The notes: generated from the sequence alone by a model not told the origin. Shown: positions 9 through 16,224, counted from the stretch's first letter. The stretch: DNA of 39,996 nucleotides from Chloroflexota bacterium (GCA_039932235.1 JBDTQJ010000003.1:1-39996), one strand, 5' to 3'. Made by a program: numbers and translations.

Positions 9-1490
9 TCAGGGTCGCGCGGCGCGACGGTGCCCGAGGCCGCGGACCATGGCCGACGGGGGATGCTCCCCGGCGATGATGGCGGCGAGGGTGGCGATGC
101 TCTCCTCGATGGCCGACTCGGGGACCATCGCGAAGCCGATCACCAGGCCGGTGGGACGCCCGGCGGGGATGGGCGCCTCGCGGTCATGAAAGCCGCCGAT
201 GCCCGCCAGCCACAGGCCGTGGCGCCACGCGCGGCGCACGATCTGGCGCTCGCGGATCGGCCGCGGCGGCTCGAGGTAGACCTGCAGGCCGGCAGCCACG
301 CCGCGGACCCGCCAGCTGGGCAGATGGGTGGCGATCGCGGCGAGGGTGACGTCACGGCGGCGCCGGTAGGCCATGCGCGCGCGACGCACGTGACGCGCCA
401 GGGTCCCGTCCTCGATGAGCTCGGCGAAGATGAGCTGGTCGATGGTCGGCGAGCCGAAGTCGTCATACGCCTTCTCGAGCGCCACCTCCCGGGCGAGCCA
501 GGTCGGCGGCGCCGCCCATCCCAGGCGCAGCCCCGGCGCCAGCAGCTTGCTCGCCGACCCGAGATACGCCACCCGGTCCGGCGCGAGGCCCTGCAGCGAA
601 GCGACCGCCTGGCGGTCGTAGCGGAACTCCGCGTCGTAGTCGTCCTCGATGATCAGGCGGGCCGCCTCGCCCCTGCCCGCGGCGCGCGCCCACCCGACCA
701 GCGCCCGCCGGCGAGGCGCGGAGAGCACCGTGCCGGTCGGGTACTGGTGCGCAGGGGTCACGAGCACCGCGGCGGCGCCCGACGACTCGAGCGCGGCCAC
801 GTCGATGCCCTCGTGGTCCACGGGGATCGGCAGCGGCTCCAGCCCGGTCCGCCGGATGAGGGCGCGCTCGGAGGTGTTGGGCCCCGGATCCTCGACCGCC
901 AGGACCGTATCGCCGCGGCGCTGCAGGGCGCGGCAGATGAGTGCCAATGACTGGGTGACGCCGGCGGTCACCACCAGGTCATCGGGCCGAGTCGCGACGG
1001 CGCGCGTCCGGGCGAGGTACGCGGTCAGCGCCGCGCGCAGGCTGGGCTGTCCGGACGGATCGCCGTACTGCAGGACGCCCAGCGGCGCGGTGCGCGCCAC
1101 GCGTGCGGCGGCCCGTGCCCAGGCGTCCCACGGAAAGAGGCTCACGTCGGGGCCGCCCGGACGCAGGTCGAACGTCGCCTCGCTGACGGCCGGAGCGTGA
1201 GCCGGCGTCGGGGCGCCGGCATCCGATGCGACCCGAGTTGCCGAACCGGGCTGGCTGGTCACGAACCCCTCCGCCGCGAGGCGTCCGTAGGCCTCGACCA
1301 CGCTGGCTCGCGAGATCCCCAGCTCGGTCGCCAGCTGGCGAGTGGCCGGCAGCGATTCGCCGGCTCGCAATCGCCCGTCCCGAATCGCGCCGCGCAGCGA
1401 CGCCTGCAGCGACCGGACGACCGCGCCGCGCCGCCGTTCGACCTCGAGGAGGAGCTCTCCGCCACCACGCATGGCCATTCGACCGTCCAT
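9..1490 (-). CDS. MocR/GabR-family regulator (GntR HTH + PLP-dependent aminotransferase domain)
   Basis: HTH LPATRQLATELGISRASVVEAY; IIEDDYDAEFRY and PLP-lysine motif GSASKLLAPGLRLGW. The start is uncertain (ATG at 1490, 1478 or 1472). Confidence 0.92.
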   Translation of the reverse strand: MDGRMAMRGGGELLLEVERRRGAVVRSLQASLRGAIRDGRLRAGESLPATRQLATELGISRASVVEAYGRLAAEGFVTSQPGSATRVASDAGAPTPAHAPAVSEATFDLRPGGPDVSLFPWDAWARAAARVARTAPLGVLQYGDPSGQPSLRAALTAYLARTRAVATRPDDLVVTAGVTQSLALICRALQRRGDTVLAVEDPGPNTSERALIRRTGLEPLPIPVDHEGIDVAALESSGAAAVLVTPAHQYPTGTVLSAPRRRALVGWARAAGRGEAARLIIEDDYDAEFRYDRQAVASLQGLAPDRVAYLGSASKLLAPGLRLGWAAPPTWLAREVALEKAYDDFGSPTIDQLIFAELIEDGTLARHVRRARMAYRRRRDVTLAAIATHLPSWRVRGVAAGLQVYLEPPRPIRERQIVRRAWRHGLWLAGIGGFHDREAPIPAGRPTGLVIGFAMVPESAIEESIATLAAIIAGEHPPSAMVRGLGHRRAARP

Positions 1491-1539: not shown

Positions 1540-1566
1540 GAGCCTCCACGAGCCATTGGTGTGACA
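1540..1566 (-). promoter_or_regulatory. Candidate ECF-sigma promoter TGTCAC-N18-CTC facing the MocR gene
   Basis: Minus strand reads tGTCAC accaatggctcgtggagg CTC; same spacing as three other copies. Confidence 0.5.
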
Positions 1567-1621
1567 ACCCTGCTCCGCCGCGCCCGGTCAGGCAGGCCAG
1601 ATGCGCGTCCGCGCGGCGGCG

Positions 1622-1648
1622 CGTCACACTCCGTCGCGGTGGCGGCTC
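1622..1648 (+). promoter_or_regulatory. Candidate ECF-sigma promoter CGTCAC-N18-CTC, 9 nt before the S41 lipoprotein ATG
   Basis: cGTCAC actccgtcgcggtggcgg CTC gaagccctg ATG. Confidence 0.6.
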
Positions 1649-1657
1649 GAAGCCCTG

Positions 1658-2938
1658 ATGAACGCGCTGCTCCGCTCCGCACGCTCGCTGCTGCTGCTCT
1701 GCCTGCTTGCCACCGCGTGCGGCGCCCCGCGGGCGACGTCGAGCGCCGGGTCCGATCTGCCCGGGCGGCCCGATGCGGCGGGTGTCGCGGCTGCCAGGGC
1801 CGACCTCGACAGGTACCTCAAACGCCTCGAGGCGATCCATCCGGAACCCTTCCACGGCATCGATCGTGGCGTCTTCGTCGCCGAGCTGGACGAGCTGAAG
1901 GCGGCCCTGCCGACCCTGTCGCGGGAGCAGGCCATGGTCGAGCTGATGCGCGCGACCGCGCTGCTCAGCCGGGCCGGACGCGACGGGCACCAGATCGCGC
2001 TGCCGCTGCCCGAGGATGGCGGCATGCTGCTCCCGATGCGTGCCTTCGAGTTCGCGGACGGCCTCTTCGTCACGGCATCCCACCCTTCCGCCGAGCCTCT
2101 CGTGGGGGCGCGGGTGACCGCGCTCAACGGCCACCCCATCGAGGAGGTGCTCGACGCACTCGAGCCGCTCGTCCCGCGCGACAGCCCGGCGACGGTGGCG
2201 AACTTCCGTCCCGTCTTCATGTCGCGCGTCGACGTCCTGCGCGGGCTCGGGCTCCTCGGTGCAGCGGCGACCGTGCCGCTGACGGTCGAAGAGGACGGCG
2301 CTGAGCGGACCGTGTCGCTCGAGCCGATCACCTTTGACGCGTACCGCGACTGGTCCGGCGACCTGGGCGTCTTCCGCCTCCCATCGGCGGACGACGATCC
2401 GACCTTCAGCGTCGAGGAGCTGGCCGCGTCGCACACCCTCTACATCCGCTACAGCCAGGTCCAGCGCATCCCGGTCGAGGACCTGGCCGCGATCCGCGAG
2501 CGCGCCGCCGCCCCGGACATCGAGCGCGTGGTGCTCGACCTGCGACAGAACCCCGGCGGCGACAACCATTCCTATCCGCCGCTCCTCGCGGCGCTGCAGG
2601 CGGAGGGCGTCGACGTGCCCGGCCGGCTCTACGTGTTGACCGATCACACCACCTTTTCGGCCGCAGCCAACCTGGCCTCCGAGCTCGAGCGCACGACCGA
2701 TGCGGTCTTCGCCGGCGATCCGATGGGCGGCGGCATCAACTTCTGGGACGACGTCTCCTTCGTCAGGCTCGACGCCTGGCCGATCCCGATGCAGGTCGGC
2801 GTCTCGACCCGCTACTGGCAGATGGGCCTCCCCGATGACCCGCGGCTGACGATCGAGCCTGACCTGGCGGTCCCGTTGACTGCCGCGGACTACTTCGCCG
2901 GCCGTGACGCGGTGCTCGAGGCGGTGCTCGCCCAGTAG
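1658..2938 (+). CDS. S41-family peptidase, lipoprotein
   Basis: Lipobox LLATAC; PDZ-like segment VTALNGHPIEEV; S41 motifs VLDLRQNPGG, LTDHTTFSAA and IEPD. Confidence 0.85.
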   Translation: MNALLRSARSLLLLCLLATACGAPRATSSAGSDLPGRPDAAGVAAARADLDRYLKRLEAIHPEPFHGIDRGVFVAELDELKAALPTLSREQAMVELMRATALLSRAGRDGHQIALPLPEDGGMLLPMRAFEFADGLFVTASHPSAEPLVGARVTALNGHPIEEVLDALEPLVPRDSPATVANFRPVFMSRVDVLRGLGLLGAAATVPLTVEEDGAERTVSLEPITFDAYRDWSGDLGVFRLPSADDDPTFSVEELAASHTLYIRYSQVQRIPVEDLAAIRERAAAPDIERVVLDLRQNPGGDNHSYPPLLAALQAEGVDVPGRLYVLTDHTTFSAAANLASELERTTDAVFAGDPMGGGINFWDDVSFVRLDAWPIPMQVGVSTRYWQMGLPDDPRLTIEPDLAVPLTAADYFAGRDAVLEAVLAQ

Positions 2939-2974
2939 CGGCCGTGCGCAGGCGCCTGCTACGGTGCGCGCGCC

Positions 2975-4303
2975 GTGAACGACGACGATCTCCGCCGCCT
3001 CCTCTCGCGCCGTGCCCTCCTGGTCGGTGGGGCGCTGGGCTTGGGTGCCTTCCTGGCCGAGGCAGGCGGCAACGTGGTGCGCGCGGCGATCGCACCGCAC
3101 CCCGACATTCGCGAACCGCGGCTCATCACCGGGCGTGGATCCAAGGTCTGGGACCCGGATCCGTACGTCACCCCGGAGCACCTGGCGCCTCGTGCCGCGC
3201 CGGTGCGCGGGGCGCAGCCGACCATGACCGCAGAATTCCGGCGCCCGGGGCTGCGCACCAAGATCGGCCAGATGCTCCTCGTCGGCTTCCGCGGCACGAC
3301 GGCGGACGCGCGCAGCCCGATCGTGGCCGAGATCACCCGCAACGCGGTCGGCGGCGTCGTCCTCTTCGATCGCATCGGCAGCCGGGCCTCGACCGTCCGC
3401 AACATCAGCTCGCCGACGCAGCTCCGCGCCCTGGTGGCCACGCTGCAGGCCGCGGGCATGGCCACGCCTCCGGGGGCGCCGCTCATCGTGGCCATCGATC
3501 AGGAGGGCGGCAGCGTGGCGCGGCTCGGCCCGCGGTTTGGCTTCCCCGCCACGTACACCGCGGCCAGCCTGGGATCGCGCAACGACCCGGCGTTCACGCG
3601 GGCGCAGGGCGAGGCCATCGCGCACACCCTGGCCTCGATGGGCATCAACCTCAACCTGGCGCCGGTCGTGGACGTCAACATCAACCCGCGCAACCCGGCC
3701 ATCGGGCGCAACGGGCGCAGCTTCTCGTCCGACCCACGCCGCGTGATCGTCCACGCCGGCGCGTTCATCGAGGGCCACCACGCAGCCGGGGTGCGCACGA
3801 CGCTCAAGCACTTCCCGGGGCAGGGGAGCGCGGCGGGCGACACGCACCTCGGCGTGGTGGACGTCACGCGTCGCTGGACCGATGCCGAGCTCGGCCCGTT
3901 CGATGCGCTCGTCGGCTCCGGCCAGGCGGACGCGGTGATGACCGGCCACATCTTCAATGCACGCCTCGATCCCGACCACCCCGCGACACTCTCGTCGGCC
4001 GTGGTGACGGGGCTGCTGCGCCAGCGGCTGGGCTTCGGCGGGGTGGTCATCAGCGACGACATGCAGATGGGCGCCATCCGGGCCGCCGACAGCTGGGACG
4101 AGGCCGTCGCGCTGGCCATCGATGCCGGCGTCGACATGCTCACCATCGCCGATCCGCCGACCCGCGGTGCGAGCCTGGTCACGCGCACCATCGACCTGAT
4201 CGAGGACCAGGTGGCGGCGGGGCGCATCAGCGAGGCGCGCATCGATGCGTCGTACGATCGGATCCAGGCCCTCAAGGCAACCCTCCTCCACGCTCCGCGC
4301 TGA
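2975..4303 (+). CDS. GH3 beta-N-acetylhexosaminidase (NagZ-like) with Tat signal
   Basis: SRRALL Tat motif; IDQEGG, KHFPGQGSAAGDTH and VISDDMQMGA. Confidence 0.88.
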   Translation: MNDDDLRRLLSRRALLVGGALGLGAFLAEAGGNVVRAAIAPHPDIREPRLITGRGSKVWDPDPYVTPEHLAPRAAPVRGAQPTMTAEFRRPGLRTKIGQMLLVGFRGTTADARSPIVAEITRNAVGGVVLFDRIGSRASTVRNISSPTQLRALVATLQAAGMATPPGAPLIVAIDQEGGSVARLGPRFGFPATYTAASLGSRNDPAFTRAQGEAIAHTLASMGINLNLAPVVDVNINPRNPAIGRNGRSFSSDPRRVIVHAGAFIEGHHAAGVRTTLKHFPGQGSAAGDTHLGVVDVTRRWTDAELGPFDALVGSGQADAVMTGHIFNARLDPDHPATLSSAVVTGLLRQRLGFGGVVISDDMQMGAIRAADSWDEAVALAIDAGVDMLTIADPPTRGASLVTRTIDLIEDQVAAGRISEARIDASYDRIQALKATLLHAPR

Positions 4304-4337
4304 GCGGGGTGGCATGCGCGGTGCAGATCAACGGAGG

Positions 4338-4766
4338 ATGCAGACACTGAGCGAAGAGCTGACCGCGGTGCGGTTCAGCGCCCCCATGCGGGAGTTCCTC
4401 GACGAGGTCCAGCCCGCCATCATCGGTACCACGCGTGCCGACGGCACCATCCAGATGAACCCGATCTGGTACGAGCGCCGCGACGACGAGATCTGGATCA
4501 ACGGCACCGGCAGCCGGAAGTGGGGCCAGCGTCTCGCCGCCAACACCCCGGTGACCCTGATCATGGTCAGCCCCGCCAACATGTGGCGCTGGGCCCAGAT
4601 CCAGGGCGTGGTGCTGGAGAAGAGCTACGACGGTGGCGAGGCGCACATCGATCGCCTGTCGCAGCGCTATCTCGGCACCCAGTACCGAAACCACCAGCCG
4701 GACGATCCGCGTCTCGTGCTGCGCATCGAGCCGATCCGCATCACCGGGACGATCGACGCCGAATAG
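4338..4766 (+). CDS. PPOX-class (pyridoxamine 5'-phosphate oxidase-like) F420/FMN-dependent oxidoreductase
   Basis: IGTTRADGTIQMNPIWY, QIQG and HIDRLSQRYLG..Y typical of the PPOX class; start approximate. Confidence 0.8.
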   Translation: MQTLSEELTAVRFSAPMREFLDEVQPAIIGTTRADGTIQMNPIWYERRDDEIWINGTGSRKWGQRLAANTPVTLIMVSPANMWRWAQIQGVVLEKSYDGGEAHIDRLSQRYLGTQYRNHQPDDPRLVLRIEPIRITGTIDAE

Positions 4767-4791
4767 GGCGCGACCCCGCCCCACGGGTGAC

Positions 4792-4822
4792 CGCCCCGGT
4801 CCGCATCACGCGGGCCGGGGCG
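4792..4822. terminator. GC-rich hairpin between convergent genes (possible bidirectional terminator)
   Basis: cgccccggtccgc-atcac-gcgggccggggcg, 13-bp stem with one G-U pair; no U-tract. Confidence 0.55.
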
Positions 4823-4840
4823 CATCGGTATGCGGGCGGC

Positions 4841-5446
4841 TCAGCCCTCGACGAGCGGCAGGTCGACGAGGTGCTCGCCGACGAACCAGACCTGGAGCTC
4901 GTTGGTGCGCAGCACGTCGCCCATCAGGAGGTCGTTGCTGCCCCAGTCCTTGTTCTTCTCGGTGGTCTCGATGGCGTCGCGGACCTTGCCGAGGATCGTC
5001 TCGTGGGCCTGCAGCAGGCGCGTGATCTGGGCCGGCACGTCCTCGGCGCCGTCAGGCGCGCGCTCGATGGTGGTCAGCTCCGCCGCGTGACGCGGGTCGC
5101 CGACGGCCACGCCGCCCAACAGCTGGACGCGCTCGGCCAACTGGTCGATGAGCGCGGTCTGCTCCTCCGCGTGCTTGTCGAACAGGAGGTGGAGCTGGTA
5201 GAAGGTCGGGCCGGCAACGTTCCAATGGTGCTTCTTGTACAGCGCGTACAGGATGGTCGAGTCGGCGAGGATCTCGTTCAGGACCGTGCAGCTCTCCCTG
5301 CGCGCCTTGTCCTCGAGCGCAATCGGGAGGTCGCGCAGGGTGCCGAAGCGCTGGACCTCGACGCCGAGCTTCGCGTACTGCGGTGATGCCGAGCTGCGGC
5401 CACTGCCGCGTCCGTTGCTGGTTGCCCTGGTGGTCGTTGTCGCCAT
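4841..5446 (-). CDS. dps: Dps (DNA protection during starvation) ferritin-like protein
   Basis: YKKHHWNVAGPTFYQLHLLFD and DQLAERV ferroxidase motifs; Thr/Arg/Ser-rich N-terminal tail; GAGG SD-like site. Confidence 0.93.
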   Translation of the reverse strand: MATTTTRATSNGRGSGRSSASPQYAKLGVEVQRFGTLRDLPIALEDKARRESCTVLNEILADSTILYALYKKHHWNVAGPTFYQLHLLFDKHAEEQTALIDQLAERVQLLGGVAVGDPRHAAELTTIERAPDGAEDVPAQITRLLQAHETILGKVRDAIETTEKNKDWGSNDLLMGDVLRTNELQVWFVGEHLVDLPLVEG

Positions 5447-5566
5447 GTGCTTCGTCCTCGGTCTCGCGCTTGTCGGGGATGGTCAATTGTCACCCTCGGA
5501 CAGCGCAGGACCGATGCCAGACCGGGTTTGGAACGCGACAGGCGCGCGACGTGCACACTCCGATGC

Positions 5567-7225
5567 ATGCTGACCGATAGCCTGGGTGACCTCGCTGCCG
5601 CGCTCGAGCGTCGCGCCGCAGCCGCGCCGGGGCCGAACCGCGCCGCGCGCGCCGAGCGACTGCGCCGCCATGTCGTCGACTATCTCCTGCCCCGGGCGGC
5701 CAGCCTCGATGCGCCGCTGGTGGTGGTGCTCCTCGGCTCAACCGGCAGCGGCAAGTCCAGCCTCTTCAACGCCCTGGCGGGGCGCGCCGTCAGCCCGTCG
5801 GGGGTCCTGCGTCCGACGACCCGCCGCCCGGTGGTCCTCGTCCACCCCGACGACGCGGCCGGGCCGCTGCTCCCCGGGCTGACGGCCCGCGACGCGCTTG
5901 ACGTTCGCGCCGATCCCACGGCGCGCCGTGGCCTGGTGTTCGTCGACGCGCCGGACTTCGACAGCGTGGAGCTCGCCAACCGGGAGCTGGCGGTGGAGCT
6001 CCTCGAGGCGGCCGATCTGGTCGTCTTCGTCTCGACCGCGACCCGCTACGCCGACCAGGTGCCGTGGGCGATCCTGGGCCGCGTCCGGCAGCGCGGCGTG
6101 CCGTTGCTCGCGGTGCTCAACCGCCTCCCCGCCGATGCCGACGACGCAGCCGCCGTACTCGCCGACTACCGGCATCTGCTGCAACGCGGCCAGCTTGATG
6201 ACGCGGGCGCCTTCGGCGCGCTGGAGGTGGTGCCCGTGCTGGAGGGCGCCGTCGACCCCGTCGCGGACGCGCTCGACGCCCCGTCAATCGCTCCACTGCG
6301 CGAGGCGTTCGACCGCCTGGTGGCGGACGATGTCGCCCGGCGCGAGATGGCGAAGCGCAGCCTGGAGGCTGCCCTCGCCGGCCTGCCCGAGGCGGTCGCC
6401 GAGATCGCGGCGCAGGTCGATGACGAGCAGGCATCGGTCGCGGAGCTCCTCGCGGCGGCGCAGGGTGGGTATCGCGAGCGGCGCGCGGCGCTCGGTGACG
6501 AGATCGCGCGCGGCGCGTTCATGCGTGCCGAGGTGCTGCGCCAATGGCACGATTTCGTGGGCGCCGGCCAGGTGGCGCGCGTGCTTGCGCAGGGCGTGGG
6601 TCGCATCGGCGCGACCCTGCGCGGCCTGATCCGCCCCGGCCCCCCGGCACCGGCCGTGGAGGTCCGGGAGGCGGCCTTCGCCGACCTCGTCGCCCTCACC
6701 ACCCAGCATGCCGATGCCGCCGCCCAGCGCACGGCCGTCACCTGGGCGGAGGATCGCTACGGTGCTGCCGCGCTCGCCGCCGACGCCAGCCTGTGGGGTG
6801 CCTCCCCGGCCCTCGGCGAGCGCCTGGGTGGCGACCTGGAGGGGTGGGCCGCCGAGATCGGGCGCGAGATCCGCGAGCTTGGTGAGCAACGGCGGGGCTG
6901 GGCGCGGGTGGCGAGCATCGGGGTCAATGCGCTGGGCACCTCGGCCGTCCTGGCGGTGTTCGTCCATACCGGCGGGCTGACCGGGGCCGAGGTGGGGATC
7001 ACTGCCGCCACCGCCGTCGTCAACCAGAAGCTGCTCGAGGCGCTCTTCGGCGAGGCGAACGTGGCCGCCTTCGTGACCCGCGCCCGCGGCCGGCTGACCG
7101 CCATCCTGGACGCGGCCTTCACCGATGAGCGGGTGCGCTTCGACGCGGCGCTCGGCACGGCCGCGGACCCGGGCCTGGCCGATGCGCTGCGGACTGCCGC
7201 GCAGGGAGCGATGACGGCACCGTGA
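5567..7225 (+). CDS. Dynamin-like GTPase, subunit A of a tandem pair
   Basis: G1 GSTGSGKS, G2 RPTT, G3 DAPD, G4 LNR; long helical region and a hydrophobic paddle (VNALGTSAVLAVFV...). Confidence 0.8.
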   Translation: MLTDSLGDLAAALERRAAAAPGPNRAARAERLRRHVVDYLLPRAASLDAPLVVVLLGSTGSGKSSLFNALAGRAVSPSGVLRPTTRRPVVLVHPDDAAGPLLPGLTARDALDVRADPTARRGLVFVDAPDFDSVELANRELAVELLEAADLVVFVSTATRYADQVPWAILGRVRQRGVPLLAVLNRLPADADDAAAVLADYRHLLQRGQLDDAGAFGALEVVPVLEGAVDPVADALDAPSIAPLREAFDRLVADDVARREMAKRSLEAALAGLPEAVAEIAAQVDDEQASVAELLAAAQGGYRERRAALGDEIARGAFMRAEVLRQWHDFVGAGQVARVLAQGVGRIGATLRGLIRPGPPAPAVEVREAAFADLVALTTQHADAAAQRTAVTWAEDRYGAAALAADASLWGASPALGERLGGDLEGWAAEIGREIRELGEQRRGWARVASIGVNALGTSAVLAVFVHTGGLTGAEVGITAATAVVNQKLLEALFGEANVAAFVTRARGRLTAILDAAFTDERVRFDAALGTAADPGLADALRTAAQGAMTAP

Positions 7226-8820
7226 TCGACCCGCTCGAGGCACGCCTCGCCGCCCTGCGGGTCGCCGCCACCGCGATCCGCTCGATCGGGCTCGAGGACC
7301 CAGCCATCGCCGCCGAATCGGTGGCACGTCGCGTGGACCAGCGAGCGGGGTTCGGCGGCACGGCCTACGTGATGGCGCTTGCCGGCGGGACCGGGGTCGG
7401 GAAGTCGTCGCTGCTCAACGCGCTGGCCGGCCACACGGTCAGCGCGGTGCGCGCGATCCGGCCGACAACCGACGAGCCGCTCGCCTGGCTGGCCGATGGC
7501 GTGCGCCACCAGGCCGCGCCGCTCCTCGACTGGCTCGGGGTGCGACACGCGGTCGGGCACGCGGATGCCGAGCTGGCCTCGGTGGTGATCCTCGACCTGC
7601 CCGACGTGGACAGCGTTCGCGGGGAGCACCGTGCCACGGTCGACGAGATCCTGCCGCGCATCGATGCCGTGACCTGGGTCGCGGATCCTGAGAAGTACGA
7701 CGACCAGCGGTTGCACACGTATCTGCGTTCGCTCGCGGGCCACGCGGATCGGATGCGCTTCGTGCTCAACAAGGCGGATCGGCTGACGGCCGAACAGGGC
7801 GCCGCACTCGCGGCCGACTGGGCGCGACGGCTGGCCGAGGACGGGATCCCGGACGCCCGTGTGCATGTGGTCTCGAGCACCACGCTGGCCGGCATTCCCG
7901 AGCTGCGATCGACCATCGCGCGCGCCGCCGACGCCAAGGCCGACCTCGCCGCCAAGGCGCACGCCGACGTGCGCGATGCAGTGCTGGACCTGGCGGCGGC
8001 GGCGGGCGTTCGTCCCGATGCACCCCGCGAGCCGCTCATTCCGCCCCAGCGCCTGGCCCTCGCCATCGACGCTGCGACCAGCGGCGCGCTCGCAGTCGTC
8101 GATCCGGCCGGCGTCGCGCGCCAGGTACGCGCGGCCGTGCTTGCCGGCGTTCGACATCGGGGCGGGTCGCTCCTTGGCCGGGCGCTGGCGCTCCTGGCCT
8201 GGATGACCGGCCAGCAGCGTCGCTCTGCGGATCCGCGTGCCTACCTGCTCGACTGGCGGCGCCGCGGCTCGCTCGGCCGAGTGGTCAACCCGCTGCGCGC
8301 GCTCCTGGTCGAAGCGGCGGCAGGCCTCCCCGCCGACTCGCGGCCGGCGATCCTCGGGACGCTCGGCGCCGACGCGCCCGAAGCGATGGTGAGCAGAACG
8401 CTGGACGCAAGCGCGGCGCAGGCGGCCGCCGGCCTGCGGATTCCCGGTTCTTGGATCTGGCCGGTGGTGGGCGCCGTGCAGCTGGTCATCGGGGCCGTGT
8501 TCCTGTTCGCGGCGGCGTGGTACCTGACCCTCTTCGTCGGCGGGGGCCAGGTGCCGGTGGGTGCCTTCGACCTGCCGGTCGTCGGGCCCGTCCCGGTCCC
8601 GCTGGCGCTGCTCGTCGGTTCGGTGGCGGGGAGCGGTCTGCTCGGCTGGCTCACCGGGCTGCACGCGGGGCTCATCGGACGGCGCGTGGGACGCCGGGTG
8701 GCGCAGCGCGTCGAGGCGGCGGTCCGAACGTCGATCGAGGAGGTCGGCCTGGAGGACCTGCGCCGCGTCGAAGCGGCCCGAATGCACGTCGCGGACGCGC
8801 TCGATCTCCTGGAGCGCTGA
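7222..8820 (+). CDS. Dynamin-like GTPase, subunit B, with two C-terminal TM helices
   Basis: G1 GGTGVGKS, RPTT, DLPD, NKAD; GTGA overlap with the upstream GTPase; TM segments near the C-terminus. Confidence 0.8.
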   Translation: MIDPLEARLAALRVAATAIRSIGLEDPAIAAESVARRVDQRAGFGGTAYVMALAGGTGVGKSSLLNALAGHTVSAVRAIRPTTDEPLAWLADGVRHQAAPLLDWLGVRHAVGHADAELASVVILDLPDVDSVRGEHRATVDEILPRIDAVTWVADPEKYDDQRLHTYLRSLAGHADRMRFVLNKADRLTAEQGAALAADWARRLAEDGIPDARVHVVSSTTLAGIPELRSTIARAADAKADLAAKAHADVRDAVLDLAAAAGVRPDAPREPLIPPQRLALAIDAATSGALAVVDPAGVARQVRAAVLAGVRHRGGSLLGRALALLAWMTGQQRRSADPRAYLLDWRRRGSLGRVVNPLRALLVEAAAGLPADSRPAILGTLGADAPEAMVSRTLDASAAQAAAGLRIPGSWIWPVVGAVQLVIGAVFLFAAAWYLTLFVGGGQVPVGAFDLPVVGPVPVPLALLVGSVAGSGLLGWLTGLHAGLIGRRVGRRVAQRVEAAVRTSIEEVGLEDLRRVEAARMHVADALDLLER

Positions 8821-8922
8821 ACGCCGTCGGACCTTGCTCCGCCTGGTGCCATGACGAATGACGTAGTGCGCGTGCGCACCACGGCCGTCGACCGCGGCAC
8901 GCCGCATGCGTAGGGTCGTCGC

Positions 8923-9048
8923 ATGCTCCGCCACGAACCCATCACCGAGCGCAGGTCCACCGTCTCCGACACCGAGCTCGGGATTGCCGTCGTGCTGCTG
9001 GGCCTCGTCCTCATCTTGGCCGTCATCGTCGTCCCGCTGGTCGGCTGA
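8923..9048 (+). CDS. 41-aa single-TM small protein (absent from the ORF track)
   Basis: MLRHEPITERRSTVSDTELGIAVVLLGLVLILAVIVVPLVG*; TAGGGT box 6 nt upstream; GC3-rich codons. Confidence 0.6.
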   Translation: MLRHEPITERRSTVSDTELGIAVVLLGLVLILAVIVVPLVG

Positions 9049-9072
9049 CCCGCGCCCCGCGCGGGGAGCGGC

Positions 9073-9106
9073 TCCCAGAGGATTCCCAGCCACGGGGCGC
9101 TAGCAT
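9073..9106 (+). promoter_or_regulatory. OmpR-type tandem repeat TCCCAG-N5-TCCCAG plus -10 box TAGCAT
   Basis: Direct hexamer repeat with 11-bp period at 9073-9089, just upstream of the response regulator. Confidence 0.55.
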
Positions 9107-9115
9107 GGCCACACC

Positions 9116-9790
9116 ATGCACCTGTTGGTCGTCGAAGACGACGCGCGCCTCGGGCGCTCCCTCAAACGCCTGCTGGAGGGCGAGCGGCATCTCGTCGAGC
9201 TCGTCACAACCGGCGACGCGGCGCTCGAGGTCGCCGAGAGCGACGGCATCGAGATCGTCATCCTGGACGTCGGCCTGCCCGACATCAGCGGCCTCGAGGT
9301 GGCGCGCCGCATGCGCGACGCGGGGTCGCAGCTGCCGATCCTGATGCTCACCGCACGGGACGCCGTGCCCGACCGCGTGGCGGGCCTCAACTCGGGCGCC
9401 GACGATTACCTGGTCAAGCCGTTCGCCTACGAGGAGCTCGTCGCGCGCCTGCGTGCGCTCGACCGCCGCCAGCGCAGTACGCCGGCCCGACGCGGGGCGT
9501 TCCTCTCCAGCGGCCCGATTCGCCTCGACGAGGAGCGCCGCCAGGTCTCGGTGGAGGGCGAGGACGTCGAGCTGTCCCCGCGCGAGTTCTCTCTCCTCGA
9601 ATGCCTGCTGCGCCATCCGGGACAGGTGCTCAGCCGCGACCAGCTGCTGGAGCAGGCCTGGCCATATGGCGAGTTCCTGATGCCGAACACGGTGGACACC
9701 TACGTTCACTACCTGCGCGACAAGCTGGGGGCGGGCGCGGCCCGCATCCAGACCGTGCGCGGGGTCGGCTATCGCATGGCGGCCGGCTAG
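9116..9790 (+). CDS. OmpR/PhoB-family response regulator
   Basis: VVEDD, ILDVGLP, GADDYLVKPF and winged helix QTVRGVGY. Confidence 0.95.
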   Translation: MHLLVVEDDARLGRSLKRLLEGERHLVELVTTGDAALEVAESDGIEIVILDVGLPDISGLEVARRMRDAGSQLPILMLTARDAVPDRVAGLNSGADDYLVKPFAYEELVARLRALDRRQRSTPARRGAFLSSGPIRLDEERRQVSVEGEDVELSPREFSLLECLLRHPGQVLSRDQLLEQAWPYGEFLMPNTVDTYVHYLRDKLGAGAARIQTVRGVGYRMAAG

Positions 9791-9794
9791 ACCG

Positions 9795-11102
9795 ATGGGC
9801 CTGCGGCCCGGCACTCGCACGCCAGATGCGCCCCTGTTGCGGCGCACCCGGTGGCGCCTGGCACTCTGGAGCGGTGGCGCGACGCTGGCCACCCTGGTGG
9901 TGCTCGGGATCCTGCTCTACGTGGTCCTCAACCGCACCCTCTCCGCGGACTCGGAGGCGAGGCTGCGGAACCAGGCGGACGAGATCCAGCAGGCGGTCGA
10001 CCGCATCGGTGGCAACGCGCTGCGCTTCCTGACCCGCGACGACGGTCCGCTCGGTGGGCCACGGGTCGGCGGTCCCGGCGCGGGCACCACGACCATCGCG
10101 GTCCGTGCCGACGGCCGGGCATTCGGGGTCGTGCCCCGCGAGCTGGTCGATGAATTGCCGGTGCAGGCCGCGTTCGAGGCGGCCCTCGGCGGAGCCGACG
10201 ACGTGCGCACCGTGACCCTCGCCAACACGCCGTTCCGCGTGCGGTCCGAACCTCTCGAGATCGGCGGGGAACGGCTCGTGATCCAGATCCTGGACAACCG
10301 TGCCGCCGAGCAGCGCGTCCTCGCGACCGCGCTCATCGTCCTGCTGGTCGGTGGAGCGGTCGTCGTGCTGGCGTCCGTGGTCTTCGGCTTCGTGTATGCC
10401 GGGCGGGCGCTCATCCCGATCCGCGACTCGCTCCGCCGCCAGCGCGAGTTCGCCGCCGACGCATCGCACGAGCTGCGCACACCGATCACCGTGATCCGCT
10501 CGAGCGCCGACTACCTGCGTCGGTCGCCGGCGCTCCGGGTCGGCGAGACCGCTGCGGCGGTCGATGACATCACCGCCGAGAGCGAGCGCATGACGCGCCT
10601 GGTGGAGGAGCTGCTGCTGCTGGCGCGCGCCGACTCGGACGCCATCGAGATGCGACACGAGCGCATCGACCTGACCGATGTGGCCGGCGACGCGCTCCAT
10701 GGCCTTGCCCGCCTGGCGGACGAGCGCCGGGTGCGGCTCGAGATGGACGGCCAGCCGGCGCCGGTGGAAGGCGACCCGGACCGCCTCCGGCAGCTGCTGG
10801 CGATCCTGGTCGACAACGCGGTGCGGCACTCTCCGGCCGGGGCGGCTGTCAGCGTCCGCGTGGCACGCACCGGTCGCACCGTCTCGCTATCGGTCAGCGA
10901 CGCCGGCGCGGGCATCCGCCCGGAGGACCTGCCGCGCCTCTTCGACCGCTTCTACCGCGCTGCCGGGGCGCCGGCCGGTGGCAGCGGCCTTGGCCTCGCC
11001 ATCGCCGAGTGGATCGCGGAGCGCCACCACGGCAGGCTCACCGCCGCCAACGGGCCGGCGGGGGGTGCCACCTTCACCCTGGTCCTGCCCGCGGCAGGAT
11101 GA
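9795..11102 (+). CDS. Membrane sensor histidine kinase
   Basis: Two TMs; H-box DASHELRTP; N-box ILVDNA; G boxes DAGAGI and GSGLGLAI. Confidence 0.95.
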   Translation: MGLRPGTRTPDAPLLRRTRWRLALWSGGATLATLVVLGILLYVVLNRTLSADSEARLRNQADEIQQAVDRIGGNALRFLTRDDGPLGGPRVGGPGAGTTTIAVRADGRAFGVVPRELVDELPVQAAFEAALGGADDVRTVTLANTPFRVRSEPLEIGGERLVIQILDNRAAEQRVLATALIVLLVGGAVVVLASVVFGFVYAGRALIPIRDSLRRQREFAADASHELRTPITVIRSSADYLRRSPALRVGETAAAVDDITAESERMTRLVEELLLLARADSDAIEMRHERIDLTDVAGDALHGLARLADERRVRLEMDGQPAPVEGDPDRLRQLLAILVDNAVRHSPAGAAVSVRVARTGRTVSLSVSDAGAGIRPEDLPRLFDRFYRAAGAPAGGSGLGLAIAEWIAERHHGRLTAANGPAGGATFTLVLPAAG

Positions 11103-11146
11103 TCGGGCTGCGTGACATCGGGGTGCGCTGGGTGGACACTACGGCC

Positions 11147-11389
11147 ATGGGACCCCGACGCGACCCCTCAGACCCGAAGCCACTGCCCTCGTTCGACGGG
11201 GTGACCCAGTCGCTGGGCACCTTCCTGGCCGGCCTGGAGCAGAAGATCCTGCACGGTCGTCCGCCGGCCGCGGTGGTGGTCGAGGAGGACGAGCGCAGCA
11301 CACCGCGCACCATCAACGGGCTGAGCATCGAGATGCCGGAGCAGATCGAGCGGCCCGAGCCACCCGACACGACCGGCGCGCGTCTCTAG
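11147..11389 (+). CDS. Hypothetical protein (80 aa)
   Basis: Coding-like GC3 bias; GACACT box 6 nt before the ATG. Confidence 0.6.
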   Translation: MGPRRDPSDPKPLPSFDGVTQSLGTFLAGLEQKILHGRPPAAVVVEEDERSTPRTINGLSIEMPEQIERPEPPDTTGARL

Positions 11390-11446
11390 GCGTCCGGAAG
11401 GGGAGCGGCGCCGGCCCGTTCCCGGCGCCCACCCCACGTCGTCCGC

Positions 11447-12502
11447 TCAGAGCGCGACGAGCCAGAGTGACGAGGTGTCGCCGCCACCATCCAGGGCTTC
11501 GACGATGAGGTGATCCTCGTCACCCCTGATCAGGCTGATCCCGTTGATGCCATCCGAGCCGGGGAAGAGCGCCTCCGTGACGGCCGCCCCGTCGCAGGTC
11601 CACGTCTCGCCGTCCGCGCTCACCGCCGAGACGATGGTGGTCGGACCTGCCCCCACCGTGAAGCCGGTGTACAGGATCCGGTAGCCGCTCGCCGTCCGCG
11701 CCAGCTGCGGCTGGAACGTGGAGCCGGCGTCGAAGTCGCCGCACAGGCCCTCCTCGATGATCGGGTCGCTGGCGAGCAGGTCACGCGCCGCCGTCGAGAG
11801 GTCGAACTTGGTCCACGTCGCGGCGTCCTGAGAGGTGGCCATGCCGACCACCCCGTGGTTCGGGAAGAGGCGCGAGGAGGCCGAATACGCGGCCCGGTAG
11901 CCGCCGCCGTCCGCGACCACCGACGGGGCGAAGATGCCACGCCCGTCCCAGGCGTCGCCCTCGCCGGGCCGCAGGATGATCCCCGGATCGGCTGTCCACG
12001 GACCATCCGGGCCGGGCGCGGTGGCGCGCCACGCCACGGTGGGGGCCGGATTGGTGCCCGGCTCGAAACCCCAGCCGTAGAGCGTCCACGTCCCGTCCGG
12101 TTCGACGAGCACGCTGGTCGGAATCGGCCCGGGATCGGCCAACCCGAGGTCGATCGTCGCCCAGTCGGGGTCCGCGGCGGCCTCCCACGACAACGCATCG
12201 CTCGAGGTCAGGTGCGTGGCGCGGGTCACGCCGTCCGCGAAGGCCAGGCCGTACAGGTGATACGTGCCCTCGTGCAGGATGGCGGCGCCGGGATTGAAGA
12301 AGTCCATTCCGACCAGGGTGGTGGCACGGAAGATCGGCTCGTCGCTGGCGAGCGTTCCGCTGGCGTCGGGAAACGGGTGCCGCGTACCGGCCGCCGTCGG
12401 GCTCGGCGAGATGCTGCTGCTCGTCGGGATGGCGCTCCCACCCGCACACGCGACCAGGAGCAGCACCAGGGCCGGGAGAGCCGGGTACGTTCGACGGATC
12501 AT
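11447..12502 (-). CDS. Lipoprotein with beta-propeller glycosidase-like fold (GH43/32/130-like repeats)
   Basis: Lipobox LLVAC, Ser/Pro linker; repeats TSSDALSW, ATSQDAATW, SADGETW, WDGRGIFAPSV. Confidence 0.7.
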   Translation of the reverse strand: MIRRTYPALPALVLLLVACAGGSAIPTSSSISPSPTAAGTRHPFPDASGTLASDEPIFRATTLVGMDFFNPGAAILHEGTYHLYGLAFADGVTRATHLTSSDALSWEAAADPDWATIDLGLADPGPIPTSVLVEPDGTWTLYGWGFEPGTNPAPTVAWRATAPGPDGPWTADPGIILRPGEGDAWDGRGIFAPSVVADGGGYRAAYSASSRLFPNHGVVGMATSQDAATWTKFDLSTAARDLLASDPIIEEGLCGDFDAGSTFQPQLARTASGYRILYTGFTVGAGPTTIVSAVSADGETWTCDGAAVTEALFPGSDGINGISLIRGDEDHLIVEALDGGGDTSSLWLVAL

Positions 12503-12510
12503 GCGGCTGA

Positions 12511-12537
12511 GAGCCCCCGATGACGGGAAAGGTGACG
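12511..12537 (-). promoter_or_regulatory. Candidate ECF-sigma promoter CGTCAC-N18-CTC, 8 nt before the lipoprotein ATG
   Basis: Minus strand reads cGTCAC ctttcccgtcatcggggg CTC tcagccgc ATG. Confidence 0.62.
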
Positions 12538-12538
12538 C

Positions 12539-13342
12539 CTAGGCGGCGAGGTCCGTCGGGCCGATGCGCACCACGAAGCCCTGGCTCCAGCTTCCCTCGA
12601 GCTCGACCAGCCGGCCCCCGACGAAGAGGCGGTTGTCGTGGTAGGTGAGGCGGTCGGAGAGGAAGCCGGCGAGCTGGCCGCGCACCGTGGTGAGCTCGAC
12701 CGGGTCGCTGAAGACGATCCCCACCCCGTCGAGCAGGAATGCGGTCGCCGGCTCCACGAGCGCGTCGTCGTGGCGGTCGGTCACCGTGGCCTTCAGCTCG
12801 AGCCAGGTGACCCCCGAGCCATCCGTGTAGGTCGACGCGTAGCGTTCGACGTTTCGCAGCTTCGGGGCACCGCAGACGTGCGCCGTCATCGGCGGGGCGC
12901 TGTACCAGCCGAGCGGCTTTTCCTCGCACGTGAGGCCCATCTCGGAGAGCTGCGCGGCGATGCCCGCGGCAGTCATGTCGGGGCTGCCCGGGGTCGGGGC
13001 GACGGGAGCGCGGAGCATGCCGAGCCCGACAGCGGTGATGGTGACCGCCACCGCGGCCGCCGCCGCGAGCGAGGCCAGCCGCAGGAGGCCGTGACCGGCA
13101 CGTTCGACGACTGGCGGCTCCACGACCCGCGGGTCGAGCACGCCCGCCGGGATCCGCGCCTCGCCCGCCACCGCCAGGGCGGCTCGCGTGATGCGGGCGT
13201 CCAGCGCGGTGGCGCGCGCCGAGCGACGGGTGCAGACCGGACACCCGTCGAGGTGCGCGCGCTCCGCGGCGCCGAGCGGCTCGCCGTCGAGGAGGCGCTC
13301 GATGATCGCCGCGGTGCGGCCGCAGCGAGTCCGGGTGGTCAC
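12539..13342 (-). CDS. Zinc-binding (ZAS) membrane anti-sigma factor
   Basis: N-terminal C...HLDGCPVC (Hx3Cx2C), one TM, extracytoplasmic C-domain; GTG start overlaps the sigma stop codon. Confidence 0.82.
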   Translation of the reverse strand: MTTRTRCGRTAAIIERLLDGEPLGAAERAHLDGCPVCTRRSARATALDARITRAALAVAGEARIPAGVLDPRVVEPPVVERAGHGLLRLASLAAAAAVAVTITAVGLGMLRAPVAPTPGSPDMTAAGIAAQLSEMGLTCEEKPLGWYSAPPMTAHVCGAPKLRNVERYASTYTDGSGVTWLELKATVTDRHDDALVEPATAFLLDGVGIVFSDPVELTTVRGQLAGFLSDRLTYHDNRLFVGGRLVELEGSWSQGFVVRIGPTDLAA

Positions 13343-13881
13343 GTTTCGTCCTCCAGCCACGCGGCGACCAGGCGGCGGCGGGCGCGCGAGACGATGGCGC
13401 GGGCGTTGACGTGGGTGATCTCCAGCAGCTGCCCGATCTCGCCGAGCGAGTAGCCGTGCCCGTAGTGCAGCACCAGCACGGTGCGCTCGCGGGCCGGCAG
13501 TCGCTCGATGAGCTCCCGCAGCTCCAGGCTGCTGTTCGACGGCGTGCGGTGCAGCCACGGCAGAAGCCGGTCCAGGTGTATGCGGCGCTGGCGCTGCCGG
13601 TAGCAGCGGTGGATGGTGATCCGCGCCAGCCACGCCTCGACCGCCGCCGGGTCGCGCAGCTGGCCGATCCGCTCCCGCGCCACCAGGTACGTGTCCTGGA
13701 CGACGTCCTCCGCCCCGCCGGCACCGATCAGGCCACGCGAGATGGCAAGCAGGCGCGGGCGCGCGCGCTCGAAGGCGGCCTCCAGGTCGACGGCGGCCCC
13801 CGCGTCGGCGGGAGCAGCGATGGTCGTGGAAGCCTCGTGCGGTCGGTCGCGGTCGTGGGACAGGTCGGCCACCTGCGTCAT
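13339..13881 (-). CDS. ECF RNA polymerase sigma factor
   Basis: Region 2 AEDVVQDTYL..WLARI; region 4 LPARERTVLVLHYGHGYSLGEIGQLL. Confidence 0.92.
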   Translation of the reverse strand: MTQVADLSHDRDRPHEASTTIAAPADAGAAVDLEAAFERARPRLLAISRGLIGAGGAEDVVQDTYLVARERIGQLRDPAAVEAWLARITIHRCYRQRQRRIHLDRLLPWLHRTPSNSSLELRELIERLPARERTVLVLHYGHGYSLGEIGQLLEITHVNARAIVSRARRRLVAAWLEDET

Positions 13882-13922
13882 CGGGTCATGTCCTGGGCGT
13901 GAATGATCCTCTCACCCGCACC

Positions 13923-13949
13923 GAGGCACGAGGCCGCCCGATCGTGACA
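13923..13949 (-). promoter_or_regulatory. Candidate autoregulatory ECF promoter TGTCAC-N18-CTC
   Basis: Minus strand reads tGTCAC gatcgggcggcctcgtgc CTC, 41 nt upstream of the sigma ATG. Confidence 0.6.
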
Positions 13950-13957
13950 CGTGCGGG

Positions 13958-14398
13958 TCAGGAGGAGCGCCGGTACTCCCCGTCGAACGCCGTTCGCCAG
14001 CTGGCGCCGCCGTCGGACGAGACCTCCCAGTGCTGACGGACCGAGCCGTCTGCGTTGGGGGTCCACGTGATGCGCTGCTGGTCGACTCGCGCCGGCACGT
14101 CATCGGCTGGTGCTGTCCCCTCGAGCACCATGCTGGCTTCCACGACGCCACCCTCCAGGCGCAGCAGCGAGCCGCTCGAGTCGACCCAGGTCTGATGCCA
14201 GCGGCCCGTTCCGGTATCGAGCGCGTTGAGGCTGGTACCACGGATCCCGCCGACGCCCTCCCAGTGCTCGGCCAGCGCGGCCCCGTCGTACAGCGACTCG
14301 ATGCGGTTGGTGCCCACCTGCCGGCCGTCCGGCGCGAACACATCCCAGCTGCCCAGCCAGAAGTCGAACGCGCGACGCGGATCTTCGGTGCTCTCCAT
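13958..14398 (-). CDS. DUF1579-like beta-barrel protein
   Basis: FDFWLGSWDV, WHQTWVDSSG and RQHWEVSSDGGASW; SD GGAGG upstream. Confidence 0.75.
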   Translation of the reverse strand: MESTEDPRRAFDFWLGSWDVFAPDGRQVGTNRIESLYDGAALAEHWEGVGGIRGTSLNALDTGTGRWHQTWVDSSGSLLRLEGGVVEASMVLEGTAPADDVPARVDQQRITWTPNADGSVRQHWEVSSDGGASWRTAFDGEYRRSS

Positions 14399-14459
14399 CA
14401 CCCCTCCTACCGATACGCGCTGAGCGAGGTTCACGCCGCCCAGGTGCTAGCGTGCGCCG

Positions 14460-15543: not shown

Positions 15544-16224
15544 ATGGCAACCGTCCTCGTCGTCGACGACGAGCCGAAGATCGCCCGCCTGCTCCGGGAC
15601 TACCTGGAGCGGGCGGGCTTCGGCGTGTCCGTGGCCCGCGACGGCCGCGAGGCGCTGATGCGGGTCCGCACCGAGCGCCCTGACCTGGTGATCCTGGACC
15701 TGGGCCTCCCCGAGATCGACGGACTCGACGTCGCGCGGCGCCTGCGACGGGACGGCGACACGCCGATCATCATGGTCACCGCACGCGACGACGAGATCGA
15801 CCGCGTGGCCGGCCTCGAGCTCGGCGCGGACGACTACGTGACCAAGCCGTTCAGCCCGCGCGAGGTGGTGGCCCGCGTACGGGCCGTCCTTCGCCGTCGC
15901 GATGGCTCCGCACGGACCGATGCGCCGCTGCGCGCCGGTCCCCTCGAGATCGACCCGGGGCGCATGGAGCTGCGTGTCGAAGGGCGGCTGGTCGAGCTGA
16001 CCGCCACCGAGTTCGCGCTCGTCGCCGCCCTTGCGCGTCAGCCCGGGCGGGTCTACACCCGCTCCCAGCTCCTCGACGCGATCCACGGCAGCGCCTTCGA
16101 GTCCTACGAGCGCGCCATCGACGCCCACGTCAAGAACCTGCGCCGCAAGCTCGAGGCGGATCCCCGGCGCCCGCGCCTGCTGCTCACCGTCCACGGCGTC
16201 GGCTACCGGCTGACCGATGCCTGA
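15544..16224 (+). CDS. OmpR-family response regulator (BaeR-like)
   Basis: VVDDE, ILDLGLP, GADDYVTKPF, RAIDAHVKNLRRK and TVHGVGY. Confidence 0.95.
   Translation: MATVLVVDDEPKIARLLRDYLERAGFGVSVARDGREALMRVRTERPDLVILDLGLPEIDGLDVARRLRRDGDTPIIMVTARDDEIDRVAGLELGADDYVTKPFSPREVVARVRAVLRRRDGSARTDAPLRAGPLEIDPGRMELRVEGRLVELTATEFALVAALARQPGRVYTRSQLLDAIHGSAFESYERAIDAHVKNLRRKLEADPRRPRLLLTVHGVGYRLTDA

Follow-up and report, generated by a model that had tools for sequence, protein, structure and literature searches.

Four copies of a bipartite motif, YGTCAC-N18-CTC, lie in a stretch of 39,996 nucleotides (nt) from a Chloroflexota bacterium (GCA_039932235.1, JBDTQJ010000003.1:1-39996; the whole stretch is termed the window), one upstream of an extracytoplasmic function (ECF) sigma factor gene and the others before the genes of two lipoproteins and a MocR-family regulator. 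The locus raises the question of whether these sites are promoters and, if so, which sigma factor reads them. Probably all four act as promoters for the ECF sigma factor whose gene lies at 13881-13339 and overlaps that of a putative membrane anti-sigma factor. The window is contig C3 of genome G000 (2.19 Mb, 234 contigs, 70.7% G+C, rated 85% complete). Comparisons within the genus cover the five genomes that have the sigma gene (G000, G003, G004, G005 and G007), which are the denominator of all counts given as five of five, and three additional genomes (G001, G002 and G006).

The motif and its conservation within the genus

A pattern scan of both strands confirms the coordinates and strands of the four originally predicted sites, all of which are intergenic and point into a gene (Table 1). 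The number of motif copies has to be revised, as the pattern matches seven times in the window rather than four; the three extra matches look like chance occurrences in or against coding DNA. The site before lipoprotein 1 occupies the 36-nt gap between the anti-sigma stop codon and the lipoprotein ATG, and the sites of pdxR and of the S41-family lipoprotein gene form a divergent (inverted) pair 55 nt apart. The consensus of 26 aligned sites is YGTCACa-N11-CsGnGsCTC.

Across the genus footprints GTCAC and (C/A)TC are invariant, whereas the 18 nt between them vary. The site upstream of the sigma gene is kept with a variable spacer in five of five genomes, with a -10 element of ATC in G003 and a site-to-start gap of 41 nt in both G000 and G005. 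The lipoprotein 1 site is likewise present in all five as CGTCAC-N18-CTC-N8-ATG with a diverged spacer, and the S41 site is kept in five of five at 8-9 nt before the ATG, with ATC as the -10 in G007. The site of a propeller paralog encoded on another contig (lipoprotein 2) is also kept in five of five genomes, and that of an M28/PA aminopeptidase lipoprotein in five of the five loci that include upstream DNA. The pdxR site is conserved with a diverged spacer in the two genomes that have the gene (G000 and G005); an ortholog search did not find pdxR in G001-G004 or G006. Thus, the MocR regulator, originally counted as a regulon member, retains its site but is a lineage-specific addition. The divergent neighbour of the S41 gene in G004 and G007 is the ortholog of the lipoprotein 2 gene, again with a site of its own.

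The sigma gene and lipoprotein 2 have the same presence pattern, both being found in G003, G004, G005 and G007 and in none of G001, G002 and G006. In G001 and G002, the two-component genes that flank the sigma island are kept at 74-80% DNA identity, but similarity to the window ends at about 11.1-11.4 kb; since the flank is conserved where similarity stops, the sigma island is accessory in the genus.

The sigma factor and its membrane partner

The sigma factor consists only of the sigma2 and sigma4 regions and matches the superfamily model TIGR02937 (sigma70-ECF) with 60.3 bits (cut-off 42.9), as expected of a group IV (ECF) sigma-70 factor. Region 4 ends at about residue 172 of 180, which agrees with the earlier description of a short protein that lacks a C-terminal extension. 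Orthologs in G003, G004, G005 and G007 share 82-93% identity, and a search of the genus genomes found none in G001, G002 or G006. At E<=1e-28, G000 encodes a single sigma factor of this family; G003 and G004 each encode a second one of 50-55% identity.

The downstream gene starts with a GTG that overlaps the sigma stop codon (GTGA). Its product carries the zinc anti-sigma (ZAS) signature H-x3-C-x2-C in the N-terminal domain, in the form HLDGCPVC plus an upstream Cys, and has one membrane helix, which together with the gene overlap upholds the view that the sigma factor is coupled to a ZAS-type partner. The anti-sigma has no Pfam or NCBIfam match (zf-HC2 is absent even at E<=1) and no match to a PDB sequence below E 0.25, and its C-terminal part of about 150 amino acids (aa) falls outside all known families searched. 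HxxxCxxC is present in 22 of the 32 open reading frames (ORFs) downstream of sigma homologs. The neighbours at the sigma locus are a DUF1579-like ORF, VanZ, the anti-sigma and lipoprotein 1. The first of these, a 158-aa ORF at 13958-14434 on the minus strand that matches DUF1579 weakly (E 0.005), adjoins the predicted sigma promoter on its upstream side, is syntenic in all five genus loci and has an N-terminal FDFW.G.W.V.

Sigma homologs and -35 words across the class

Homologs of the sigma factor occur at E<=1e-28 in 39 of 401 sampled genomes of the class. A -35-like word stands just upstream of the sigma gene in 26 of the 28 homologous loci read (13 TGTCAC and 13 TGCAAC), with nTC following 17-18 nt later. 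Together with the conserved site in the genus, this supports the proposal of an autoregulated ECF promoter. On a maximum-likelihood sigma tree of 33 rows, the GTCAC word needs 3 changes compared to 11.1 for shuffled labels, and none of 500 shuffles is as low. Four rows come from unpublished genomes (G021, G317, G299 and G111); without them the word counts are 17 GTCAC, 11 GCAAC and 1 with neither, the tree not being rebuilt. The clade of the G000 sigma factor comprises 9 rows (support 99/97), all with GTCAC, while its sister clade (L069-L072, L075, L078, L080-L083, L086, L007 and L008) has TGCAACA at the place and spacing of TGTCACA. The sigma columns that best separate the two words are 162 (A/K versus T/S) and 165 (S versus A/F/R) in the C-terminal part of region 4, a stretch that we take to be the helix reading the -35.

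The arrangement recurs in three genomes of another family (G400, G329 and G394; L088-L090), in which a site, the sigma gene, a membrane protein gene and a second site at N8 from an ATG precede a lipoprotein 33% identical to lipoprotein 1. In four genomes of that family, only the sigma and lipoprotein 1 sites are clear targets among 30 of the 44 pattern matches. Given this recurrence, the core of the module is the sigma factor, its membrane partner and the propeller lipoprotein. To this core the G000 genus appears to have added the lipoprotein paralog, the S41-GH3 pair, the M28 gene and, in one sub-lineage, pdxR.

Predicted target genes

The features of the window and the further candidate targets in G000 are listed in Table 1.

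Table 1. Motif sites, genes and related features (window coordinates unless another G000 contig is named; lipoboxes assigned by sequence rule only)
Feature	Position	Strand	Basis or detail
Site upstream of sigma gene, TGTCAC-N18-CTC	13923..13949	-	CTC at 13923, 41 nt before ATG 13881
Operon-internal site before lipoprotein 1	12511..12537	-	CTC at 12511, 8 nt before ATG 12502
Site before S41-family lipoprotein gene	1622..1648	+	CTC at 1648, 9 nt before ATG 1658
Site pointing at pdxR	1540..1566	-	CTC at 1540, 46-67 nt before candidate starts
Extra match	11556-11582	-	Within lipoprotein 1 gene
Extra match	24548-24574	-	Within P-loop kinase-like coding frame
Extra match	24152-24178	+	Immediately after a stop codon, overlapping a convergent gene at its 3' end
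ECF sigma factor, 180 aa	13339..13881	-	Pfam Sigma70_r2, r4, r4_2 and no other domain
Putative membrane anti-sigma factor, 267 aa	12539..13342	-	Frame with G+C at third codon positions of 0.90; HLDGCPVC; one hydrophobic helix
Lipoprotein 1, 351 aa, lipobox LLVAC, five-bladed-propeller glycoside hydrolase/phosphorylase-like	11447..12502	-	Translation and paralog profile
S41-family lipoprotein, 426 aa, lipobox LLATAC	1658..2938	+	Pfam Peptidase_S41 (PF03572), partial
GH3 glycosidase, twin-arginine-like signal	2975..4303	+	Pfam Glyco_hydro_3, 244 bits
PdxR, MocR-family GntR + aminotransferase-fold regulator	9..1490	-	Pfam GntR, Aminotran_1_2
Lipoprotein 2, propeller paralog, lipobox LLTTAC	G000:C96 7739-6711	-	Above Pfam cut-offs for GH130, GH43, GH32N
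M28/PA aminopeptidase lipoprotein, lipobox AMTGC	G000:C72 8178-6775	-	Carries TGTCACA-N17-CTC
C176 lipoprotein, 221 aa, lipobox VLAGC	G000:C176:1530-2230		Site 1530-1560, TGTCACA-N17-ATC-N8-ATG; best untrained match

Lipoprotein 1 itself has no Pfam match. It shares 36% identity with its paralog, lipoprotein 2, and a joint profile of both paralog groups matches the GH130 mannobiose phosphorylase chain 7fip (E 7.5e-16) and GH117 chains (about 1e-12), in keeping with the beta-propeller label that it had been given. The S41-family lipoprotein scores 36.5 bits against PF03572 (cut-off 24), with residues 260-319 covering only profile positions 2-61 of 165, and its nearest PDB sequences are modules of IRBP, a non-peptidase. 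The GH3 gene begins 36 nt after the S41 gene on the same strand and has no site of its own in the pattern and weight-matrix scans; judged by this operon-like arrangement, it is probably co-transcribed with the S41 gene. PdxR matches the NCBIfam equivalog NF052282 with 377.9 bits (cut-off 320), and its start is ambiguous (GTG, or ATG at 1490, 1478 or 1472).

The window targets of the original prediction are supported, but the set was incomplete, as at least two more lipoprotein hydrolase genes with sites, those of lipoprotein 2 and the M28/PA aminopeptidase, lie elsewhere in the genome. By comparison with G005, where S41, pdxR and lipoprotein 2 follow in that order on one contig, C96, which ends at 7931 just beyond lipoprotein 2, probably adjoins the start of the window. 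The joined order in G000 is probably lipoprotein 2, pdxR, the two divergent sites, the S41 gene and GH3. The C176 lipoprotein gene, flanked by an HPPK gene and a gene for a Lon-substrate-binding domain, encodes a protein of no Pfam family and lacks orthologs in the genus, so that a footprint of its site is not possible. Additional candidates are C39:6618-6648 (before an 88-aa ORF, with a -10 other than TC), C2:23142-23172 (before an FtsX-like gene, 17.3 bits) and matches on C221 and C16. Look-alikes in which GTCAC is followed by CTCTTC occur at G000:C41:304-330, G005:C1:98024-98050 (10.9 bits) and G006:C6:19702-19728 (20.4 bits); the gene downstream in G005 is orthologous to that in G000, and the one in G006 is different.

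Other genes of the window include a tandem pair for dynamin-like GTPases (592 and 532 aa; 5447-8820, plus strand), which adjoins a divergent Dps/ferritin gene, and two response-regulator/histidine-kinase pairs (9116-11102 and 15544-17338).

The leaderless signature

The original prediction reported the motif at 8-9 nt before the ATG of two lipoprotein genes. This geometry is kept in every ortholog and fits a leaderless signature that is found throughout the genome: in G000, TANNNT has a sharp peak at 6-10 nt ahead of candidate start codons and is present at 317 of 1604 well-scored genes compared to 33 at a control offset. About 20% of G000 genes carry the signature, a share far above the roughly 5% of leaderless genes reported for Chloroflexi, in 4 of 12 genomes where they were detected (PMC3160421). 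The 8-9 nt between the -10 and the ATG would fit transcripts that start at the start codon. In G329, G168 and G373 (L089:280, L092:501 and L093:112), the sigma gene itself starts with a GTG 8-9 nt after the site; the autoregulated sigma transcript would be leaderless in these genomes, unlike in G000 with its 41-nt gap. A WhiB gene was not found in G000.

Weighing the evidence

The statistical signal of the motif depends on what is counted. Across G000 the loose pattern gives 58 matches, of which 7 are located in the window (1.8% of the genome), and other spacings give 23-93. Intergenic matches number 13 compared to a control mean of 4.6 (maximum 15), and those aimed at a called start number 6 compared to 1.6 (maximum 6). 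As the loose pattern is as frequent as its controls, the raw count is not an argument, and the signal resides in the location of the sites between genes and in their conservation. A weight matrix scores 8 positions of G000 above 18 bits, all of them intergenic and 6 of them training sites of the matrix, and none in the reversed genome. When left out of the matrix, each G000 training site ranks between 5th and 55th among 4.36 million positions; in the leave-one-group-out form, the sigma site ranks 9, the S41 site 5 and the pdxR site 55 (26.7 bits with the full matrix). Of 24 pattern matches in G005 (8 contigs), those at the six known targets score highest, at 22-31 bits, with the next at 18.5. 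Lipoproteins account for 5 of the 9 genes behind the top-scoring G000 sites compared to 78 of 2140 genome-wide (P about 6e-6), a value that is post hoc because the lipobox rule, which in its first version flagged 1 of 5 targets, was loosened after the targets were known.

A number of points weigh against the assignment of the sites to the adjacent sigma factor. The genome-wide count of 58 is no enrichment over the mean of 52.8 for 59 permuted -35 words, and the pdxR and lipoprotein 1 sites fall to 12-13 bits when left out of the matrix. The genus footprints are not independent, as the genomes are close kin (82-93% sigma identity), and relatedness alone could explain part of the intergenic conservation; likewise, the significance of the tree and label shuffles is overstated because relatives share labels. 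The membrane protein of G400, G329 and G394 keeps its membrane helix but lacks the N-terminal HxxxCxxC, so the module can do without the ZAS feature. The M28 gene of G006 is still preceded by a 28.9-bit site (G006:C3, about 149016-149042), and a search of this genome (85% complete, 9 contigs) found no sigma ortholog (best 36% identity) and no lipoprotein 2; either this site is read by another factor or the sigma locus is unassembled. Both the dependence of the sites on the sigma factor and the start of transcription at the ATG are what we infer from sequence.

Several other accounts of the sites must be considered. That the four matches reflect chance or composition in GC-rich DNA is scarcely credible: the genome-wide frequency is indeed like that of permuted controls and three of the seven window matches are themselves chance-like, yet 100 dinucleotide shuffles of the window average 1.28 matches with a maximum of 5, so none reaches 7, and the account is already contradicted by conservation, with footprints of diverged spacer in up to five genomes per gene, the repetition of the module in another family and the contrast of 8 high-scoring positions to 0 in the reversed genome. 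It is very unlikely that the conserved words are operators of a regulator rather than promoter elements. The inverted pair of sites at 1540-1566 and 1622-1648 beside a GntR-type regulator gene would suit PdxR as such a regulator, but the search found no pdxR ortholog in G003 or G004, S41 lacks pdxR as its divergent partner in G003, G004 and G007, and the S41, lipoprotein and sigma sites persist in these three genomes; the sites of G400, G329 and G394 also occur, within the stretches of these loci examined, without a regulator of this kind. The bipartite build with a fixed 18-nt gap, the constant 8-9 nt to the ATG and the presence of the element upstream of sigma genes across the class argue further against an operator. 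A genuine ECF-type promoter that is read by a different sigma factor (ECF41-like or a paralog) is a little less remote, although still decidedly unlikely. The perfect M28 site of G006, the equality of the -35 word and spacing with the ECF41 consensus and the second family members in G003 and G004, which make cross-reading possible there, all lend it some weight. By contrast, the cut-off of the SigJ model NF007214 is unreached in G000, G005, G006, G001 and G002 (best 115 bits compared to 271), a 337-aa extended sigma factor on G000:C53 has no GTCAC site upstream, and G000 has a single member of the family; in addition, the site lies directly upstream of the sigma gene throughout the clade and the type of word tracks the sigma tree.

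If the adjacent sigma factor reads the sites, the purpose of the circuit may still differ from a response to envelope damage. It is possible, if tentative, that the circuit serves nutrient-polymer scavenging, in which the outer domain of the anti-sigma would sense an outside glycan or glycopeptide and induce hydrolases. All conserved targets are predicted to be secreted or lipid-anchored hydrolases (GH130/43/32-like propellers, GH3, S41-family and M28/PA), no chaperone, cell-wall synthase or classic stress gene is among them, and the cluster is accessory in the genus, missing beside a conserved flank in G001 and G002. Enzymes of the GH3, S41 and M28 types also serve the turnover of a cell's own wall, however, and the weight-matrix scans of G000 and G005 found no transporter or substrate-binding protein gene with a site. 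Rather improbable is that the sigma factor, the anti-sigma and the propeller lipoprotein, the last with a leaderless sigma-dependent promoter of its own, form a surface-sensing loop in a lineage that lacks TonB-type transducers, in which the lipoprotein anchored beside the outer domain of the anti-sigma would bind or cut a glycan and yield the ligand that releases the sigma factor.

Comparison with known systems

Both the -35 word and the spacing agree with the ECF41 promoter consensus TGTCACA-n16-CGTC (PMC3426412), a likeness that the original prediction drew correctly. The -35 is TGTCAC (usually followed by A), the gap is 16 nt when counted the ECF41 way and the -10 ends in TC; regulons are small and local in both systems, as far as the sources describe them (PMC3426412, PMC7776599). 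ECF41 members include SigJ of Mycobacterium tuberculosis and the Ecf41 proteins of Bacillus licheniformis and Rhodobacter sphaeroides; among all solved structures, SigJ (5xe7) gives the best full-length ECF match (E 7e-5). By contrast, the -10 is sCTC or ATC and never CGTC in the 26 aligned sites, the SnoaL-like C-terminal extension (about 100 aa) is missing from the 180-aa sigma factor, a cognate membrane anti-sigma is present here and none in ECF41, and no COE gene (carboxymuconolactone decarboxylase, oxidoreductase or epimerase) lies beside the sigma gene. The motif of ECF56 differs from the GTCAC motif (bioRxiv 10.1101/2020.01.30.927608). The sigma factor scores 55 bits against NF007214 (cut-off 271), and with the extension, anti-sigma, COE-neighbour and SigJ model tests all failing, it is rejected as an ECF41 member. 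An ECF41/ECF56-type sigma factor was also rejected as the reader of the motif, based on the lack of a match at the level of NF007214, the C53 sigma gene having no GTCAC and the differing ECF56 motif.

Pairs of ECF sigma factors and ZAS-type membrane anti-sigmas are exemplified by RslA-SigL of M. tuberculosis and ChrR-RpoE of R. sphaeroides. The pair described here shares with them an N-terminal HxxxCxxC plus upstream Cys, a gene that overlaps the preceding sigma gene and a single membrane helix. It differs in that zf-HC2 is not matched, the outward domain is of no known family and the homologs in the other family lack the motif.

Regulons of ECF sigma factors have been predicted from autoregulatory promoters and phylogenetic footprinting by Todor et al. 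2020 (PMC7776599), who also report leaderless ECF promoters in Actinobacteria. In the part of that work considered here, autoregulated promoters, small local regulons and leaderless ECF targets are already predicted at scale, and the predicted circuit of the window resembles these regulons in all three respects. The differences are the Chloroflexota host and the conserved core, which here is a putative operon-internal leaderless promoter before a lipoprotein gene. A link between S41-family proteins and ECF signalling also has precedent, as S41 C-terminal processing proteases (Prc, CtpA) cleave anti-sigma factors in cell-surface signalling (PMC10392083). In the portion of that account drawn upon, the likeness is that an exported S41-family protein is linked to an ECF sigma/anti-sigma pair; the S41-family gene here is instead a predicted target that matches its Pfam model in part, and a TonB-dependent receptor is absent. 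The main text of Casas-Pastor et al. 2021 (ECF Hub, PMC7826278) contains neither 'GTCAC' nor 'Chloroflexi', and a non-exhaustive search of the literature found neither an account of this group of sigma factors nor one of a GTCAC promoter coupled to a ZAS partner; the sigma cluster may already be part of the supplementary datasets of PMC7776599.

Proposed mechanism

In the resting state, the co-translated membrane anti-sigma would hold the sigma factor, by analogy to other pairs of this kind. The anti-sigma is predicted to have HxxxCxxC in its N-terminal domain, a single membrane helix and a domain of about 150 aa that faces outward, and a putative signal from outside the membrane would inactivate or remove it. 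The freed sigma factor would then guide RNA polymerase to promoters of the form YGTCACa-N16-sCTC. The predicted targets include: (i) the operon of the sigma factor itself, which would provide positive feedback, (ii) the operon-internal promoter, which would yield a leaderless mRNA for the propeller glycosidase-like lipoprotein 1, (iii) the presumably leaderless S41-family lipoprotein gene, probably with the downstream GH3, (iv) lipoprotein 2 (G000:C96) and the M28/PA aminopeptidase lipoprotein (G000:C72) outside of the window, and (v) the lineage-limited pdxR (G000 and G005) and C176 lipoprotein of 221 aa (G000 alone). The output is thus predicted to be a set of membrane-anchored extracytoplasmic hydrolases that would act on surface glycans or peptides, either of the cell's own envelope or of outside polymers. 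'Envelope stress' and zinc or redox sensing are provisional labels for this circuit.

Implications

The general understanding of ECF switches is unchanged by this circuit. Should the surface-sensing loop hold, the enzyme and the sensor would be one device, functionally like the glycan-sensing ECF/anti-sigma pairs of polysaccharide loci in Bacteroidota but built of different parts, and trimming of the anti-sigma by the S41-family target could provide additional feedback. For a mostly uncultured lineage in which no such regulon description was found, a concrete promoter code and a small target set can now be assigned, with the strength given above, to one sigma factor. The leaderless signature of G000 is further evidence for a high frequency of leaderless genes, at least in this branch of the Chloroflexota. 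The circuit also indicates that an ECF41-like -35 word is not bound to the protein architecture of ECF41, and the sister sigma factors of TGTCAC and TGCAAC type, which differ at two region 4 positions, may serve as a natural specificity pair for studies of the recognition code and for orthogonal switches.

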